A stretch of 64,000 nt of DNA from an uncultured Candidatus Saccharibacteria bacterium. GTDB taxonomy: Bacteria > Patescibacteriota > Saccharimonadia > CAILAD01 > GCA-016700035. Shown in pieces: positions 2,623 through 30,925 of this stretch. Position 1 is the stretch's first letter, and every line of letters starts with the position of its first letter. The DNA lies in contig CAZOVH010000002.1 in the NCBI GenBank assembly GCA_964583675.1, forward strand, positions 71,548 to 135,547, in the 5' to 3' direction. The notes under the pieces were generated by a model, which worked only from the letters and a program-made list of their open reading frames with translations, searched no databases and was not told where the DNA came from. The position numbers and the translations under genes were made by a program.

Positions 2623-3450
2623 TTATTTTCCTTTCCTATGGCGGATTATGTACTTATCAGTTGCCTTGCGACGACGAGTCTTGGCGCCGAGTGCAGGCTT
2701 ACCCCATGGTGTAACAGGACGCTTCAGACCAATTGAAGTACCACCTTCACCACCACCGTGCCGGTGATCGTTCGGGTTCATAGCCTTACCACGTACGGTT
2801 GGGCGAATACCCATGCGGCGCTTACGACCAGCAGAACCAACCTTAATGAGACTGTGACTTTCATTGCCAACACCACCGATTGTTGCGTAACACTCAACAC
2901 GAACCATGCGCATTTCGCCAGATGGGAGCTTAATTGTCGCCATTTCGCCTTCTTTGGCGGCAAGCTGAGCTTTGGTGCCAGCAGAACGAACAAGCTGTCC
3001 CCCCTTACCTGGAGTAAGTTCGATATTATATACTACGCTACCCACTGGGATTTCAGACAACGGCAAGCGGTTGTGTTCGCGAATTTCACCTTCGGCTGCA
3101 GCGGTAATAGTAGCGCCTACCTGCATACCAGAACCGGCGATAATGTAAGCCTTACGGCCTTTTTCGTCGCGAATGAGAGCAATGTTTGCCGATCGACCGG
3201 GATCATATTCGATAGCAACAATAGTTGCACTCTTCATGCCAGCTTGACGGAAGTCAACAATGCGAATGGCGCGCTTAGCACCACCACCGCGGTGACGAAC
3301 AGTAATCTTACCCTGATTATTACGACCAGCCTTTTGCTTGCGCTTAAGGATAAGAGATTTTTCTGGCTTCGTCTTGGTAATTTCATCAAAACGATCAACG
3401 CTCATGCCACGACGAGCAGAAGTATTACGCTTGAGTACGCGAATTGCCAT
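2623..3450 (-). CDS. rplB: 50S ribosomal protein L2
   Basis: 275 aa; canonical L2 with a GGG-rich C-terminus. Confidence 0.95.
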   Translation of the reverse strand: MAIRVLKRNTSARRGMSVDRFDEITKTKPEKSLILKRKQKAGRNNQGKITVRHRGGGAKRAIRIVDFRQAGMKSATIVAIEYDPGRSANIALIRDEKGRKAYIIAGSGMQVGATITAAAEGEIREHNRLPLSEIPVGSVVYNIELTPGKGGQLVRSAGTKAQLAAKEGEMATIKLPSGEMRMVRVECYATIGGVGNESHSLIKVGSAGRKRRMGIRPTVRGKAMNPNDHRHGGGEGGTSIGLKRPVTPWGKPALGAKTRRRKATDKYIIRHRKGK

Positions 3451-27018: not shown

Positions 27019-27057
27019 TTCAAACTTAAAACACCCCTTGCGGAGTGCCTTAAGTTT

Positions 27058-27245
27058 GGTGAGATTTTACAACCTCGCTAGAACCTATTTTGAGGAAAAT
27101 TGCTAAATTGCAGCCCCGCCGCCTAGCGGGTGCTTGCACCCGCTGCGCCCCGCCAGAAAAAACCGTCCTTTGCATTTTTTGAGATTTCCCCCGCCGATAT
27201 TTTTTGGATTTGGGAAAGGTCGGTTTTTCTGTTGGGTCGCCTGCC
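27058..27245. repeat. 188-bp inverted-repeat copy A (left end of putative element)
   Basis: Exact reverse complement of 28723-28910; contains an internal palindrome AGCGGGTGC-TT-GCACCCGCT. Confidence 0.9.
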
Positions 27246-27287
27246 ATAAATGGCAGAGGCGGACGGGGCTTCGCCGAGCAGCGACAA

Positions 27288-27632
27288 CTAAGGGAGCTGA
27301 ATTAAACCGATAGGATTGCCATCTATATCTTTGACGGTGGCCATGAGTATACCGCCGCCAACGTCTTTGGCGTCTTGGTGTGTTGTTGCACCAGCAGCCA
27401 AGAAGGACTTAATAGCTTTTTGTATATCGTCAACTTTCCAGTAACTTACTGGCCCAGTCATACCATCGGTGTGGCCGTTGGGGTCAAGACCGATTTCTTG
27501 GCTGTCGCCTACTTGAAAACCAACATAAAACGGCTCGTCAAAATACGGCTCAACACCGAGTAATTTGCGATACAACCCTTTGGCTTTCGCCAAGTCTTTA
27601 ACTGGATAAATAACCGATTTGATACCCTGCAT
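27288..27632 (-). CDS. VOC family protein (glyoxalase/bleomycin-resistance/dioxygenase fold)
   Basis: MQGIKSVIYPVKDLAKAKGLY... VOC N-terminus; AAGGAG RBS; start at the internal ATG. Confidence 0.7.
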   Translation of the reverse strand: MQGIKSVIYPVKDLAKAKGLYRKLLGVEPYFDEPFYVGFQVGDSQEIGLDPNGHTDGMTGPVSYWKVDDIQKAIKSFLAAGATTHQDAKDVGGGILMATVKDIDGNPIGLIQLP

Positions 27633-27646
27633 AGTTTCTCCTTTAT

Positions 27647-27916
27647 TTAATCTTTCCAGTTCCACCATAGTAGCTTGCCCGGGTCGGGGTGTGTTGTACT
27701 AGCGTAATACACCGCACCACGAAAGACATACAAAATACAGCGGTCAATATGGCCGCCAACTTGCGCCATAAGCCGCTCGTACATCTCCTCTGGGTTTTGG
27801 TCTTTGAGGTCAGACGGCTGCTTATAGCCCAACGATATTAAATCGGCAGCTATCGACTTGCCGACACCCGGAATATTAGTAAACTTGGTTGCTTGCTGGA
27901 TGGGAACTGCCTTCAT
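27647..27916 (-). CDS. helix-hairpin-helix DNA-binding protein (Cdd1 'pathogenicity locus'-like)
   Basis: 89 aa; FTNIPGVGKSIAADLISLGY hhH motif. Confidence 0.55.
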   Translation of the reverse strand: MKAVPIQQATKFTNIPGVGKSIAADLISLGYKQPSDLKDQNPEEMYERLMAQVGGHIDRCILYVFRGAVYYASTTHPDPGKLLWWNWKD

Positions 27917-28671
27917 GCTCTGCTAGTATGCACCTTATATGGCCAATCGTATTGTAAAAATCCGTCATATTCATCGTGCAAGGCTTTTGGTGTCGTACCA
28001 GAAAGCAAACGAATATCATGGGTCATGTGTGCTTGGTCTACATAGTCGAAGTCGGCGGCCAGACTGCCAAGACGAGGCTGTTCTTGTAAAAGCAGCTCAC
28101 CTGCTACGGCCAGTTGGCGGTTGATACGGACAAATTGCTTGGGGGCGAGGCCAACATATCGGCGGAACTTCCGTTCTATGGTTCGTGGGCTGAGTAGCTG
28201 GTGAGAAACAAAGTTTGTATCGCCTGTTCGCACTAGCGCTACGAGTATGTCATCTAGCGCTTTATCTGTCGTTAAAACTTTCTGCAATACCAACGTTTTC
28301 ACAAGCACCGCAAGCTGTGGGAGTATCGGCTTTGCGATTTGTAAGGAGGCATTAGGCAGGAGTTGCGTAAGCGGAACAGACCCGTCTTGATAGCCTGCCA
28401 AATCGGACTCAAGCGCTGCAAAATAGACACCTGGCCGAAAACGAACACCGTAACTACGAACGCTGGAGTCTAGTGGCATAACAATGGCTTTCGTCATCGG
28501 TCCGACAAACTCAAACTCATAGCTATCGCCGCACACATGCACCACGAGATCCCATGAACCGTCTGGCAAAACACGCAGCTCCGCGTCGTTTGTCGTGGAT
28601 ACTTCCCAGAAGCGATGCACGAAAGGCTTGAGGTCATCGGACGGTTTGATGTGTTTAATAATTATGGGCAT
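27913..28671 (-). CDS. AraC-family transcriptional regulator
   Basis: 252 aa; C-terminal AraC HTH (..FDYVDQAHMTHDIRLLSGTTPKALH). Confidence 0.75.
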   Translation of the reverse strand: MPIIIKHIKPSDDLKPFVHRFWEVSTTNDAELRVLPDGSWDLVVHVCGDSYEFEFVGPMTKAIVMPLDSSVRSYGVRFRPGVYFAALESDLAGYQDGSVPLTQLLPNASLQIAKPILPQLAVLVKTLVLQKVLTTDKALDDILVALVRTGDTNFVSHQLLSPRTIERKFRRYVGLAPKQFVRINRQLAVAGELLLQEQPRLGSLAADFDYVDQAHMTHDIRLLSGTTPKALHDEYDGFLQYDWPYKVHTSRA

Positions 28672-28722
28672 ATGTATCTATTTTACATGAACTGAGGAAC
28701 TTTCGTTGTAAATCGGAGCTAT

Positions 28723-29040
28723 GGCGACCCAACAGAAAAACCGACCTTTCCCAAATCCAAAAAATATCGGCGGGGGAAATCTCAAAAAATGCAAAGGACG
28801 GTTTTTTCTGGCGGGGCGCAGCGGGTGCAAGCACCCGCTAGGCGGCGGGGCTGCAATTTAGCAATTTTCCTCAAAATAGGTTCTAGCGAGGTTGTAAAAT
28901 CTCACCAGAAATGGACTAAAGTCAGAATTAGCGGCGCGTTGCGCCGTTTTTTCTTTGGCTGCGCGGAGCGCAGACCAAATGTTTTCAGGGGGGAGAAAAG
29001 AACTTTGGGCAGCCCTTGGCTGCGCCTTTTTGGTTTTTAG
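28723..29040. repeat. ~318-bp internal repeat X, the inverted copy of the element's two ends joined
   Basis: 28723-28910 is the reverse complement of 27058-27245; 28907-29040 is the reverse complement of 30590-30720 (88 bp identical, then about 80%); the two halves abut at a CC dinucleotide (28905-28906). Confidence 0.9.
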
Positions 29041-29187
29041 CCGCCATAGGCGGTTTCTGGTAAAATAGTAAGTGGACACAAACTAATTTCGGCAAATCTT
29101 TTTCGATGGCTTTAATAGCCGTCCCGTACAAATTGGGTTTGCCTAGTTTGTGTCCAGCGGGGCGGCTATTTAAGTTGAGGGGGTGTC

Positions 29188-30849
29188 ATGCAAAACAATA
29201 AATATTATCTGTACGCCAGAAAGTCTACTGACGTAGAGGACAAACAGGTTTTGTCCATTGAGGCGCAACTGGTAGAGTTGCGAGAGTATGCCAAAAGAGA
29301 AAACTTATATATTGCAGCCGAGTTCATAGAGAAAAAGTCAGCCAAAACGACAGGCAGACCAGTATTTGGCAAACTGTTGGCTGAAATCGAAAAAGATGGC
29401 GGCAATATTTTGGCGTGGCACCCTGACAGACTTGCTAGAAATAGCGTAGACGGTGGGCAGATTGTCTATTTGCTAGACAGCGGACAACTCGGCACGCTCA
29501 AGTTTCCCTCTTTTTGGTTTGAGAACACGTCACAGGGCAAGTTTATGCTCTCAATAGCTTTTGGACAGTCCAAATATTATGTAGACAATCTGTCCGAGAA
29601 CACTAAAAGAGGTTTGCGCCAAAAAGTGCGGCGGGGCGAACGTCCTGGGCTTGCGCCTGTGGGCTACATAAATGATGTTAGGACAAAAACGGTTGTCGTA
29701 GACAAACGGCGTTCGCCGATTGTCATTGAGGCTTTTTCGTTGTACGTCAAAGGCGATCAACGGCTTGAGGATATCGCCACTTTTCTAGCAAGTAAAGGAA
29801 TACTAACGAAGTCTGGCAAACAGTTTCCGAAAGATAAAATTAAGCGCATACTCACCAATCCGTTTTACTATGGGCATTTCCGTTATTTTGGCGAGATACA
29901 CGAGGGCAAACATACAGCCATAATTTCCAAGAAACTTTTTGACGAGGTGCAAGCTACGCTTGCAAAGCGTGGGCGACCGCAAAAAGGCGCAACTGCGCCG
30001 CAAATATTTTGCGGTTTGCTCAAATGTGCAACGTGTAAACTGTCCGTTACTGCCGAGAAAAAGATAAAGCACCAAAAGAACGGCAATATTCACGAGTATG
30101 TGTATTATCGTTGCACAAGAAAGCACAAAACAATCCGTTGCACCGAGCCAGCCGTAACTGAGCATGATTTAGTAGCGCAGTTGGCGGACATTTTGTATAG
30201 CTACGCTATGCCACAAGCGTGGGCGATTACGCTGGGCAAAATGCTGGACGAGGACGAAAAGAAAACCAACCAAACATCTGGCTTGTTTGTGGCGGGCGCA
30301 CAAACACGACTTGCGAGCTTGCAGGGCAAGCTCCAGCGACTTTTAGACAGTTATTTAGACCAAGATATCGACCAGAACTCTTATCGCAGTAAACAGGGCG
30401 AGCTAATGTCCGAGAAAAAGTCGCTGGAGGAGCAAGTCAGCAAGCTAACGCTTGCCGCCGGAAGTTGGGTTGAACCTATGCACCAGTGGCTCAAACAATC
30501 CGTTTCTCTCTGTGAAGTTGCTAAAAATGGAAGTTATGCAGACATTAAGCAGGCATTTCTTGAAATGGACGGATTGAACCTGTTTCTAAAATCCAAAAAA
30601 GCGCAGCCAACGGCTGCCCCAAACGCAGCTCTCCCCCCTGAAAACATTTGGTCTGCGCTCCGCGCAGCCAAAGAAAAAACGGCGCAACGCGCCGCTAATT
30701 CTGACTTTAGTCCATTTCTGGTGCGGATGAAAGGACTCGAACCTTCACGTCTTGCGACACTAGCTCCTAAGGCTAGCGTGTCTACCAGTTCCACCACATC
30801 CGCTCGTCGCAAGCGAATTCACTTTGTCTTGCTCAGTGGCGATAATTAA
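29188..30849 (+). CDS. large serine recombinase/integrase
   Basis: N-terminal resolvase catalytic domain YARKSTDVEDKQVLSIEAQ; recombinase domain; Zn-ribbon CGLLKCATCK...YYRCT; coiled-coil; ORF reads through the repeat and tRNA-Leu with no stop until 30849, so the C-terminus is uncertain. Confidence 0.85.
   Translation: MQNNKYYLYARKSTDVEDKQVLSIEAQLVELREYAKRENLYIAAEFIEKKSAKTTGRPVFGKLLAEIEKDGGNILAWHPDRLARNSVDGGQIVYLLDSGQLGTLKFPSFWFENTSQGKFMLSIAFGQSKYYVDNLSENTKRGLRQKVRRGERPGLAPVGYINDVRTKTVVVDKRRSPIVIEAFSLYVKGDQRLEDIATFLASKGILTKSGKQFPKDKIKRILTNPFYYGHFRYFGEIHEGKHTAIISKKLFDEVQATLAKRGRPQKGATAPQIFCGLLKCATCKLSVTAEKKIKHQKNGNIHEYVYYRCTRKHKTIRCTEPAVTEHDLVAQLADILYSYAMPQAWAITLGKMLDEDEKKTNQTSGLFVAGAQTRLASLQGKLQRLLDSYLDQDIDQNSYRSKQGELMSEKKSLEEQVSKLTLAAGSWVEPMHQWLKQSVSLCEVAKNGSYADIKQAFLEMDGLNLFLKSKKAQPTAAPNAALPPENIWSALRAAKEKTAQRAANSDFSPFLVRMKGLEPSRLATLAPKASVSTSSTTSARRKRIHFVLLSGDN
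30590..30720. repeat. inverted-repeat copy B' (right end of putative element, inside the recombinase 3' coding region)
   Basis: Reverse complement of 28907-29040; ends exactly at the tRNA-Leu CCA. Confidence 0.85.
30719..30803 (-). tRNA. tRNA-Leu (anticodon UAG), type II with a long variable arm
   Basis: Minus-strand sequence GCGGATGTGGTGGAACTGGTAGACACGCTAGCCTTAGGAGCTAGTGTCGCAAGACGTGAAGGTTCGAGTCCTTTCATCCGCACCA; 7-bp acceptor stem, anticodon loop CTTAGGA, T-loop GGTTCGAGTCC, encoded CCA; close to E. coli tRNA-Leu. Confidence 0.8.
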
Positions 30850-30925
30850 TCTTAACACCACTGAGCAAGACACGTTCCATGCGACGCTCCTCTCAAATTC
30901 AAATTACCAATTTGAATTTAGGGGC

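Follow-up and report, generated by a model that had tools for sequence, protein, structure and literature searches.

Why would a mobile element carry inside itself, and in inverted orientation, the site that would form if its own two ends were joined? This question is raised by interval 27057-30723 of a 64-kb stretch of a Candidatus Saccharibacteria contig (the window; all coordinates are window positions), in which a large serine recombinase gene and a short cargo cassette lie against the 3' end of a tRNA-Leu gene. A first-pass annotation of the window had remarked that a second intact attP-like copy within such an element is atypical. Relatives were compared at about 159 loci (79 from reference genomes and 80 from metagenomes; loci and contigs carry labels such as L004), whose recombinases are 41-90% identical to that of the window, and the internal copy turned out to be the rule for the family. 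It is very probable, as judged from these sequences, that the interval is an integrative element of the large serine recombinase class which uses the 3' end of a tRNA gene as its target. The explanation preferred here, and a reasonably probable one, is that the joined ends of the element (attP) are also maintained inside it, inverted, as a second active site. That the internal attP is a substrate of the recombinase and not a passive duplicate is, as a claim of its own, advanced only tentatively.

Reading away from the trigger-factor gene, the parts of the element follow one another as left flank, arm A, cargo, arm A', arm B', recombinase gene, arm B and tRNA gene (Table 1). A repeat search of the window returned two inverted pairs, at coordinates within a few bases of those first proposed for the repeats (27058-27245 and approximately 30590-30720). 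Arms A and A' match at 100% over 185 nt, and arms B' and B match at 93% over 138 nt, with the 96 nt nearest the core being identical and every mismatch falling within the distal ~40 nt. Arms A' and B' overlap by 5 nt, CACCA, the complement of which (TGGTG) forms the first 5 nt of arm A and the last 5 nt of arm B; it is this overlap that makes the internal segment an inverted copy of the joined ends, as the first-pass annotation had supposed. The right-hand core is the CCA end of tRNA-Leu(UAG), which was called by both ARAGORN and Rfam and is the sole tRNA gene detected in the 64-kb window. The tRNA is intact despite the insertion and there is no target duplication. Together with the three Pfam domains of the recombinase and the short core common to all three sites, these observations uphold the proposal that a large serine recombinase runs into the tRNA 3' end and that the outer junctions are hybrid attL and attR sites of the kind produced by attP x attB exchange. 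A crossover at a shared CC/GG dinucleotide had also been proposed. The short shared core stands, but the exchange cannot be narrowed down to that dinucleotide, as the core is 5 bp in the window and 4-6 bp in the family; the crossover must be confined to these shared 4-6 bp, within which no exact dinucleotide can be assigned.

Table 1. Coordinates of the parts of the element and its flanks in the 64-kb window
Feature	Position	Strand	Description
Left flank	27019..27056	-	Orphaned tRNA-Leu trailer and terminator (probable), left half of the original attB; ~70% homologous to the trailer in unoccupied L173 and L175
Core TGGTG, left junction (attL)	27057..27061	+	Same 5 nt at all three junctions
Arm A	27057..27241	+	Putative attP right half-site mimicking the tRNA T-arm, plus distal repeat; 100% complementary to 28723-28907
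Cargo, VOC/glyoxalase-family gene	27288..27668	-	PF00903, E 9.5e-07
Cargo, Cdd1 helix-hairpin-helix gene	27647..27916	-	PF11731, E 5.6e-28
Cargo, regulator with DUF6597 and AraC-type helix-turn-helix (HTH_18)	27913..28671	-	PF20240 and PF12833
Arm A'	28723..28907	-	Repeats arm A in inverted orientation; forms half of the internal attP
Core CACCA, internal inverted attP	28903..28907	-	Common to arms A' and B'
Arm B'	28903..29040	-	Inverted copy of arm B; two terminator-like hairpins, 28930-28948 and 29009-29023, facing the recombinase gene
Hairpin with T-run, then extended -10-like box	29040..29066	+	Box TGGTAAAAT at 29058-29066; read from sequence; hairpin and box recur in relatives
Structured leader RNA of the recombinase gene	29070..29187	+	~110 nt; P1 29074-29085/29144-29155; P4 29110-29126/29158-29174; Shine-Dalgarno 29177-29183
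Large serine recombinase gene	29188..30849	+	553 aa; Resolvase, Recombinase and Zn_ribbon_recom domains (Pfam)
Arm B	30586..30723	+	Putative attP left half-site, paired with arm B'; two terminator-like hairpins on the tRNA strand (30696-30678, 30617-30603), just downstream of the tRNA
Core TGGTG, right junction (attR)	30719..30723	+	Last acceptor-stem base, discriminator and CCA of the tRNA
tRNA-Leu(UAG)	30719..30803	-	Intact; acceptor and T-arm form the putative attB right half-site; ARAGORN; Rfam tRNA 58.9 bits

The arrangement could conceivably have nothing to do with mobility: it might be an invertible switch that has been domesticated, an artefact of assembly or a member of a dispersed repeat family. 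Many contigs do break at the arms, and the window assembly is not checkable against reads. Contigs that begin or end inside arms are to be expected of repeats that exceed the assembly k-mer. Each arm sequence occurs exactly twice in the window, where none was expected from 100 shuffles, and the inner ends of the arms run into unique sequence. Independent Logan contigs that carry the window's trigger-factor gene extend 30 nt into arm A and then end, which confirms the left junction (attL) in two other sequencing runs. The same architecture recurs in approximately 138 independent assemblies, including the closed genome L004 (CP064994.1), with some 20 tRNA types and unrelated cargo, and an empty site has been found (see below). 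A non-mobile origin is thus already contradicted and scarcely credible, and an assembly artefact, a chance repeat and a dispersed repeat family were each rejected on the uniqueness of the arms, their unique inner joins and the recurrence of the architecture.

Among the relatives, which span Saccharibacteria and many other lineages and phyla of the Patescibacteria (candidate phyla radiation, CPR), self-comparison found the inverted B'/B pair flanking the recombinase gene at 138 of the ~159 loci. Where contigs extend far enough, a second pair (A/A') surrounds the variable cargo and adjoins B', usually with 4-12 nt in common, the exceptions being L019, L028 and L058. The B arms have a median length of 119 nt (range 44-160) in the 114 pairs that are not cut by a contig end, and 77 of these pairs are at least 97% identical; the A arms have a median of 160 nt (46-330) in 54 untruncated pairs, with identity of at least 97% in 44. 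Visible sequence upstream of B' is always an A-type half-site, and no chromosomal left flank directly adjoining B' was seen among the elements examined. An internal, inverted site of joined ends is nearly universal in the family, and the architecture is retained even with recombinases that are just 41-45% identical to that of the window. In full-text literature searches neither this architecture nor the occurrence of serine recombinases in elements of CPR bacteria was found described, and the large family of elements with a large serine recombinase targeting tRNA 3' ends apparently has not been described in these bacteria.

The association with tRNA-Leu holds for the window but not as a specificity of the element; across the family, almost any tRNA gene can be the target, at its 3' end. 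In 89 locus entries arm B overlaps the 3' end of a convergent tRNA gene by 4-6 nt. About 20 tRNA types are represented (among them five Leu isoacceptors, Ile, Met, Arg, Ser, Val, Tyr, Gly, Gln, Thr, Glu, Lys, Asp, Trp, Cys, Asn and Pro), and the target tRNA differs even among close recombinase relatives. A common core of 4-6 bp is present at all three sites in the relatives, as it is in the window. Next to the core, the tRNA reads TGGTG CGGATGAAAGGACTCGAACC and arm A reads TGGTG AGATTTTACAACCTCG[CTAG]AACC, such that CTCG[CTAG]AACC in arm A corresponds to CTCGAACC in the tRNA with an offset of +4 bp. The GAAC motif lies farther from the core in arm A than in the tRNA T-loop by 4 bp in 70 and by 5 bp in 7 of 81 scorable loci. 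For the integrase of a Listeria phage (LI), the zinc-ribbon motif is reportedly set about 5 bp farther out in attP half-sites than in those of attB. By this rule the acceptor and T-arm of the tRNA read as a B-type half-site and arm A as a P-type mimic of it, and mimicry of the T-arm explains a target that is close to universal among tRNA genes.

Left flanks in the family, read in the tRNA sense, are A-rich and continue with a hairpin and a T-run but are otherwise not conserved; they look like orphaned tRNA trailers, as found after an ordinary tRNA gene. Arm B has an A-rich start resembling the left flanks, along with a GGAAT motif about as far out as the GAAC of arm A. Of 89 relatives, 41 have at least one terminator-like hairpin in arm B as read on the tRNA strand, compared with 3 of 89 shuffled sequences, and the element thus replaces the terminator that its insertion displaces.

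Evidence for movement comes from strains and loci that differ in occupancy. Cargo of the window type (78-82% identity) occurs with a 78%-identical recombinase at tRNA-Met in L014. Genomes may hold two elements at different tRNA genes, as do those represented by L005 with L014, L006 with L038 and L029 with L032, and by two elements within L016. Strains that share an identical ClpP diverge immediately to the right of the trigger-factor promoter (window position ~27021 onward), and two of them, L173 and L175, have the tRNA-Leu 3' end joined directly to a trailer terminator that aligns with the left flank of the window. The junction in these strains matches the empty site reconstructed by deleting 27062-30723, so the unoccupied site that had been predicted from the window does exist. 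Contigs L085 and L091 end at the core, and in the same sample the contig that approaches from the opposite side ends exactly at CACCA, as would be expected of a branch point at the core; most contigs from the RsmD side end inside the tRNA, owing to strain variation, and do not show the junction. A candidate orthologous empty site between L016 and L018 was rejected as the flanks are not comparable.

How the internal site might behave can be read in part from the orientation of the cores. Adjacent cores are oppositely oriented and the two outer cores are direct, from which it follows that a conservative recombinase could excise only the whole unit and could only invert either half. In the proposed mechanism, the recombinase would join attP (B/A) to attB (tRNA trailer/tRNA end) by a double-strand cut and a 180-degree rotation. 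The excised form would be a circle with two inverted attP sites, and entry could occur through either one and hence in either orientation, whereas in the chromosome the internal attP would only invert, and never delete, the cargo or recombinase segment. This may be why the internal site is inverted, since with a direct copy the recombinase could separate itself from its cargo by deletion, and an inverted copy allows only flipping. A different scheme, in which cargo and recombinase are separately excisable circles with a palindromic site, was rejected because adjacent cores are opposite and the resulting 2-nt overhangs would not be religatable, and also because no element was seen with a chromosomal flank directly at B'.

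The first-pass annotation had suggested that the element may switch between inverted states, and at the level of the family every arrangement expected from the core orientations was found, both kinds of flipped form included. The cargo of L012 is inverted relative to that of L015 and L016, beginning at the arm boundary (630 nt, 88-89%). Recombinase-flipped forms, with a plus-strand tRNA directly before B' and the recombinase, occur in L027, L029, L100 and L102, and the complementary order (recombinase-B/A-cargo-A'/CACCA-trailer) occurs in L095 and L172. L095 carries cargo of the window type in the order and orientation expected if the same circle entered via its second attP, and two usable attP sites on a circle would explain such rare mirror-image insertions. 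In the tandem arrays of L021, L122, L127, L167, L073 and L144, the cores strictly alternate in orientation, and these arrays show that an occupied B/tRNA junction can be reused. As for a free form, L118 has a 448-nt perfect inverted repeat (926-1373 and 2819-3266) consisting of an entire attP, arm A plus arm B, on either side of the recombinase gene, and the contig does not branch at the core. Such an arrangement would suit a free circle or a concatemer present in the sample and is suggestive, but the contig is not closed. No circular contig was found, L113 included.

Several considerations weigh against use of the internal site by the recombinase. The evidence is all comparative, and no recombination product has been directly observed; moreover, the junction of a circle would be identical in sequence to the internal site, so that assemblies cannot reveal circles. 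Canonical large serine integrases, such as those of phiC31, Bxb1 and A118, are known to recombine only attP with attB, and inversion between attP and attL or attR would be unorthodox. About 87 elements are in the standard orientation, 6 are internal to tandem arrays and 9 are flipped, which is far from the ~50:50 ratio expected from free self-inversion. The strong one-way orientation of the recombinase argues against free flipping driven by the enzyme, and the bias would have to be attributed to selection or to very low recombinase activity. A few loci in which the recombinase is truncated (L101 and L160) have no repeats. RecA acting on repeats of 120-180 nt could yield every arrangement seen.

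In one alternative, an ancestral inverted duplication of attP would have been kept as terminators or insulators round the cargo and the recombinase, with the recombinase never using the internal copy. RecA-dependent gene conversion would then hold the copies identical, and rare RecA crossovers would produce the flipped forms. The enrichment of terminator-like hairpins in the B arms fits this alternative, as does the range of arm lengths (44-330 nt), along with the differences among related elements in the distal parts of the arms, both of which are predicted by expansion and conversion of inverted repeats. A recombinase orientation that is biased, next to a cargo orientation that is near random, likewise fits rare RecA flips that are neutral or slightly deleterious. 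Insulation, however, does not need a preserved and seamlessly fused core with half-sites of ~25 bp, yet A' and B' usually abut in the shared core where both pairs were detected. That core and half-sites are seamlessly preserved in relatives as distant as those with 41-45% recombinase identity speaks against a copy that is purely passive. The circular order expected for entry through a second attP is also seen in mirror-image insertions, L095 among them. On balance a passive duplicate is an unlikely explanation, if one that has to be taken seriously.

The preferred explanation, in which the internal attP is an active site, may itself draw on gene conversion, by which the arm copies would be kept identical as inverted repeats. 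Elements with recombinase genes that are 85-95% identical have A arms that are only 77-98% alike and often align over just the first ~50 nt. Such identity within elements set against divergence between them indicates that the arm copies evolve in concert, for which gene conversion is sufficient. Arm mismatches, inspected for conversion starting at the core, show only a moderate distal excess, which does not decide the matter. The arms might serve additionally as transcription insulators, which would keep cargo in either orientation and the strongly transcribed tRNA from disturbing a tightly controlled recombinase gene.

The content of the cargo bears on how the element could leave the chromosome. 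Fifty-two distinct cassettes of 0.5-6.3 kb hold 111 open reading frames (ORFs) of at least 90 aa and 80 Pfam families with no gene in common, and the recombinase is the only conserved protein of the family. No conserved candidate for a directionality factor was present among the 111 cargo ORFs and their 80 Pfam families, although small or novel factors could have escaped this comparison. It has been considered whether the internal attP could substitute for such a factor during excision by binding a recombinase dimer that is not exchanged and building a three-site complex with attL and attR. The lack of a conserved factor candidate in the cargo and the presence of the internal site always between attL and attR speak for this idea, which is nevertheless pure inference. 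Long identical arms would not be required for such a role and flipped forms would be left unexplained; no large serine recombinase is known to set a precedent for it, and it is regarded as improbable.

Alternatively, the arms might function through base pairing. The hosts of these elements rely on DNA uptake, for which natural transformation is an important route. In single-stranded DNA, for example that from natural transformation, A could pair with A' and B' with B to align the ends of the element, after which flap trimming and ligation by host flap nucleases and ligase would circularise it with neither recombinase nor directionality factor, and the circle would insert at a tRNA gene following second-strand synthesis. 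Reverse-complementing the joined ends gives exactly the internal site, whose arms usually abut in the shared core where both pairs were detected, the arms are nearly perfectly complementary and their median lengths are far above the ~25 bp of serine-integrase half-sites, intrastrand pairing requires the inverted orientation that is seen, and the cargo yielded no directionality factor. Some arms, however, are short (44-46 nt) or merely 85-93% alike, arm identity is explained by gene conversion alone, and the scheme has neither direct evidence nor a precedent among serine-recombinase elements. Although quite improbable, it would, if true, describe a mobile element adapted to spread by transformation, with precise circularisation that needs no excision enzyme. 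Intrastrand inverted repeats build or align the recombination site in integron attC and in the attP of CTX phage, which bears on this scheme only. The tyrosine recombinases acting there exchange one strand pair, and nothing in the present elements shows single-stranded intermediates.

Among known systems, the phage integrases of phiC31, Bxb1, A118/LI and SPbeta (SprA) share with this family the three-domain recombinase, hybrid attL and attR, a short core and the absence of a duplication, and the position of the element-side motif 4-5 bp farther from the centre matches the offset described for LI attP and attB. The family differs from them in that its recombinases are only ~25% identical to these enzymes, they are aimed at a generic feature, the 3' end, of many tRNA genes and not at one gene, there is no conserved directionality factor, and the elements are tiny, with one gene plus 0.5-6 kb of cargo. 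A second, inverted attP is always present in the family, and literature searches found no account of such a site. Tn4451 (TnpX), Tn5397 (TndX) and SCCmec (CcrAB) are likewise small cargo elements moved by a large serine recombinase, and these recombinases are known to both excise and insert with no directionality factor besides. The elements move by way of a circular intermediate, such as is predicted here. They have, however, a single joint site, no internal inverted copy and targets other than tRNA ends. Kinship extends to the general family only.

The nearest ecological analogue is provided by the tycheposons of Prochlorococcus, which are small cargo elements of streamlined genomes that insert in tRNA genes, form tandem arrays and carry diverse cargo (bioRxiv 10.1101/2020.12.28.424599). 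Tyrosine recombinases account for 910 of the 937 tycheposons and cryptic elements in that study, and many carry replication genes (bioRxiv 10.1101/2020.12.28.424599), while no replication gene family is among the 25 most frequent cargo families listed for the present elements. Tycheposons are without the geometry seen here, and the term "inverted repeat" appears only in the reference list of that article. With a recombinase of the serine type, the present family shares with them the tRNA target and modularity of cargo.

Segments between inverted sites also occur in the Hin, Gin, Cin and Min systems, and the hin gene lies inside its invertible segment. Hin-type enzymes are small (~190 aa, with a C-terminal helix-turn-helix, ~26-bp sites and an enhancer) in comparison to the 553-aa large recombinase of the window. 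The yeast 2-micron circle, in which two long identical inverted repeats, each with the recombinase site (FRT), separate two unique regions, has the geometry predicted for the circle of the element, but Flp is a tyrosine recombinase on a replicating plasmid and the predicted circle is without a replication gene. Neither the Hin-type systems nor the 2-micron circle is an integrative element targeting tRNA genes.

CPR bacteria have tiny genomes and few recognised mobile elements. A family that is distributed across many CPR phyla with varied accessory genes may be a main route of gene exchange there. The recombinase appears to read a feature common to all tRNA genes, the T-arm beside the CCA end, which the element's own site imitates with a shift in spacing. 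In this the family would illustrate clearly, and in nature, how attP and attB differ in spacing. Compact integrases whose landing site is predictable and near-universal are a further prospect, and a possible engineering tool. An obligatory, inverted second attP is a design that has not been described for serine integrases and raises the question of how an element lacking a directionality factor leaves and re-enters chromosomes.

The recombinase itself has a catalytic domain at residues 7-151 (PF00239, E 8.7e-22), followed by PF07508 (E 9.3e-18) and a zinc ribbon (PF13408, E 2.3e-07) that exceeds the gathering score, and residues ~340-470 look helical by eye, as the coiled coil would that large serine recombinases have embedded in the zinc-ribbon domain for the control of directionality. 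A search of the Protein Data Bank with the sequence gave only weak matches, to catalytic domains of the resolvase family. A search for homologues found 7998, the closest being from Saccharibacteria; phage enzymes of the class are distant, as noted above, and a scan of IMG/VR for relatives returned none. An exact look-up of the window recombinase and of the longest RsmD ORF found no record of either. The final ~45 codons before the core fall within arm B, and the ORF continues across the core into the antisense strand of the tRNA. This part past the core (30724-30849) adds 42 codons, whereas in a circular or flipped form the ORF would stop after 14 codons in arm A. As read-through differs between states of the element, the tail of the protein would be state-dependent, and homologues differ in length in keeping with this (515-553 aa and beyond).

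The recombinase gene is preceded, in order, by the pair of hairpins in B', another hairpin that has a T-run, the TGGTAAAAT box and the leader. The box is promoter-like by its sequence alone and is absent from the output of a consensus promoter scan. Helices of the leader cross each other, implying a pseudoknot or alternative folds, and include many G-U pairs. In an alignment of 25 leader sequences, 96.8% of cells are paired and 18 of 29 pairs have compensatory changes, a level equalled in 0 of 500 shuffles; slid controls gave 26-42% paired. The leader matched nothing in Rfam. It is a candidate for a new cis-regulatory RNA that may keep expression of the recombinase tightly controlled. The leader is present upstream of the recombinase also in L004-L045 and in L112, L115, L121, L127 and L138.

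The three cargo genes of the window were identified from Pfam matches as the VOC/glyoxalase, Cdd1 and AraC-type proteins that had been named from the sequence at the outset. Besides L014, where it lies at tRNA-Met, cargo of this type is found in L095 in the flipped arrangement. Across the family the cargo includes methyltransferases, NUDIX hydrolases, restriction-modification and detoxification genes, and the orientation of cargo ORFs is near random (57% versus 43% by length).

Several minor observations were made in and around these loci. Orphan copies of tRNA 3' ends (17-22 nt) lie ~100-150 nt beyond the current junction, at 4957-4985 in L016 (22 nt) and on the reverse strand of L173 at ~170-190 nt from the contig start; L173 and L175 have a 129-aa gene and a 17-nt remnant of a tRNA-Leu end between the trigger-factor gene and the tRNA. 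Such copies may have been left behind by previous insertions or by an element of another kind. The region to the right of the trigger-factor promoter was compared in L173, L175 and L176 and in L174, and another strain has DpnII-type restriction-modification genes there. An imperfect palindrome of ~80 nt between the A' arm and the next A-type arm of L113 (8446-8560) resembles a B'/B pair with no recombinase gene, a decayed module in an array. Ten loci with the element in CPR-like tRNA contexts (L009, L010, L022, L040, L062, L065, L070, L075, L077 and L079) are filed under Gammaproteobacteria, Acinetobacter, Spartobacteria, Clostridia or Pseudomonadales, labels which are probably binning errors in public genome bins. 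In the window, a 21-nt inverted repeat (30825-30872; 90% complementary, 6-nt loop) separates the RsmD-like gene from the tRNA. As the sister strains L085-L090 have a much shorter spacer there, the repeat may be a terminator or else a small palindromic element that was inserted.

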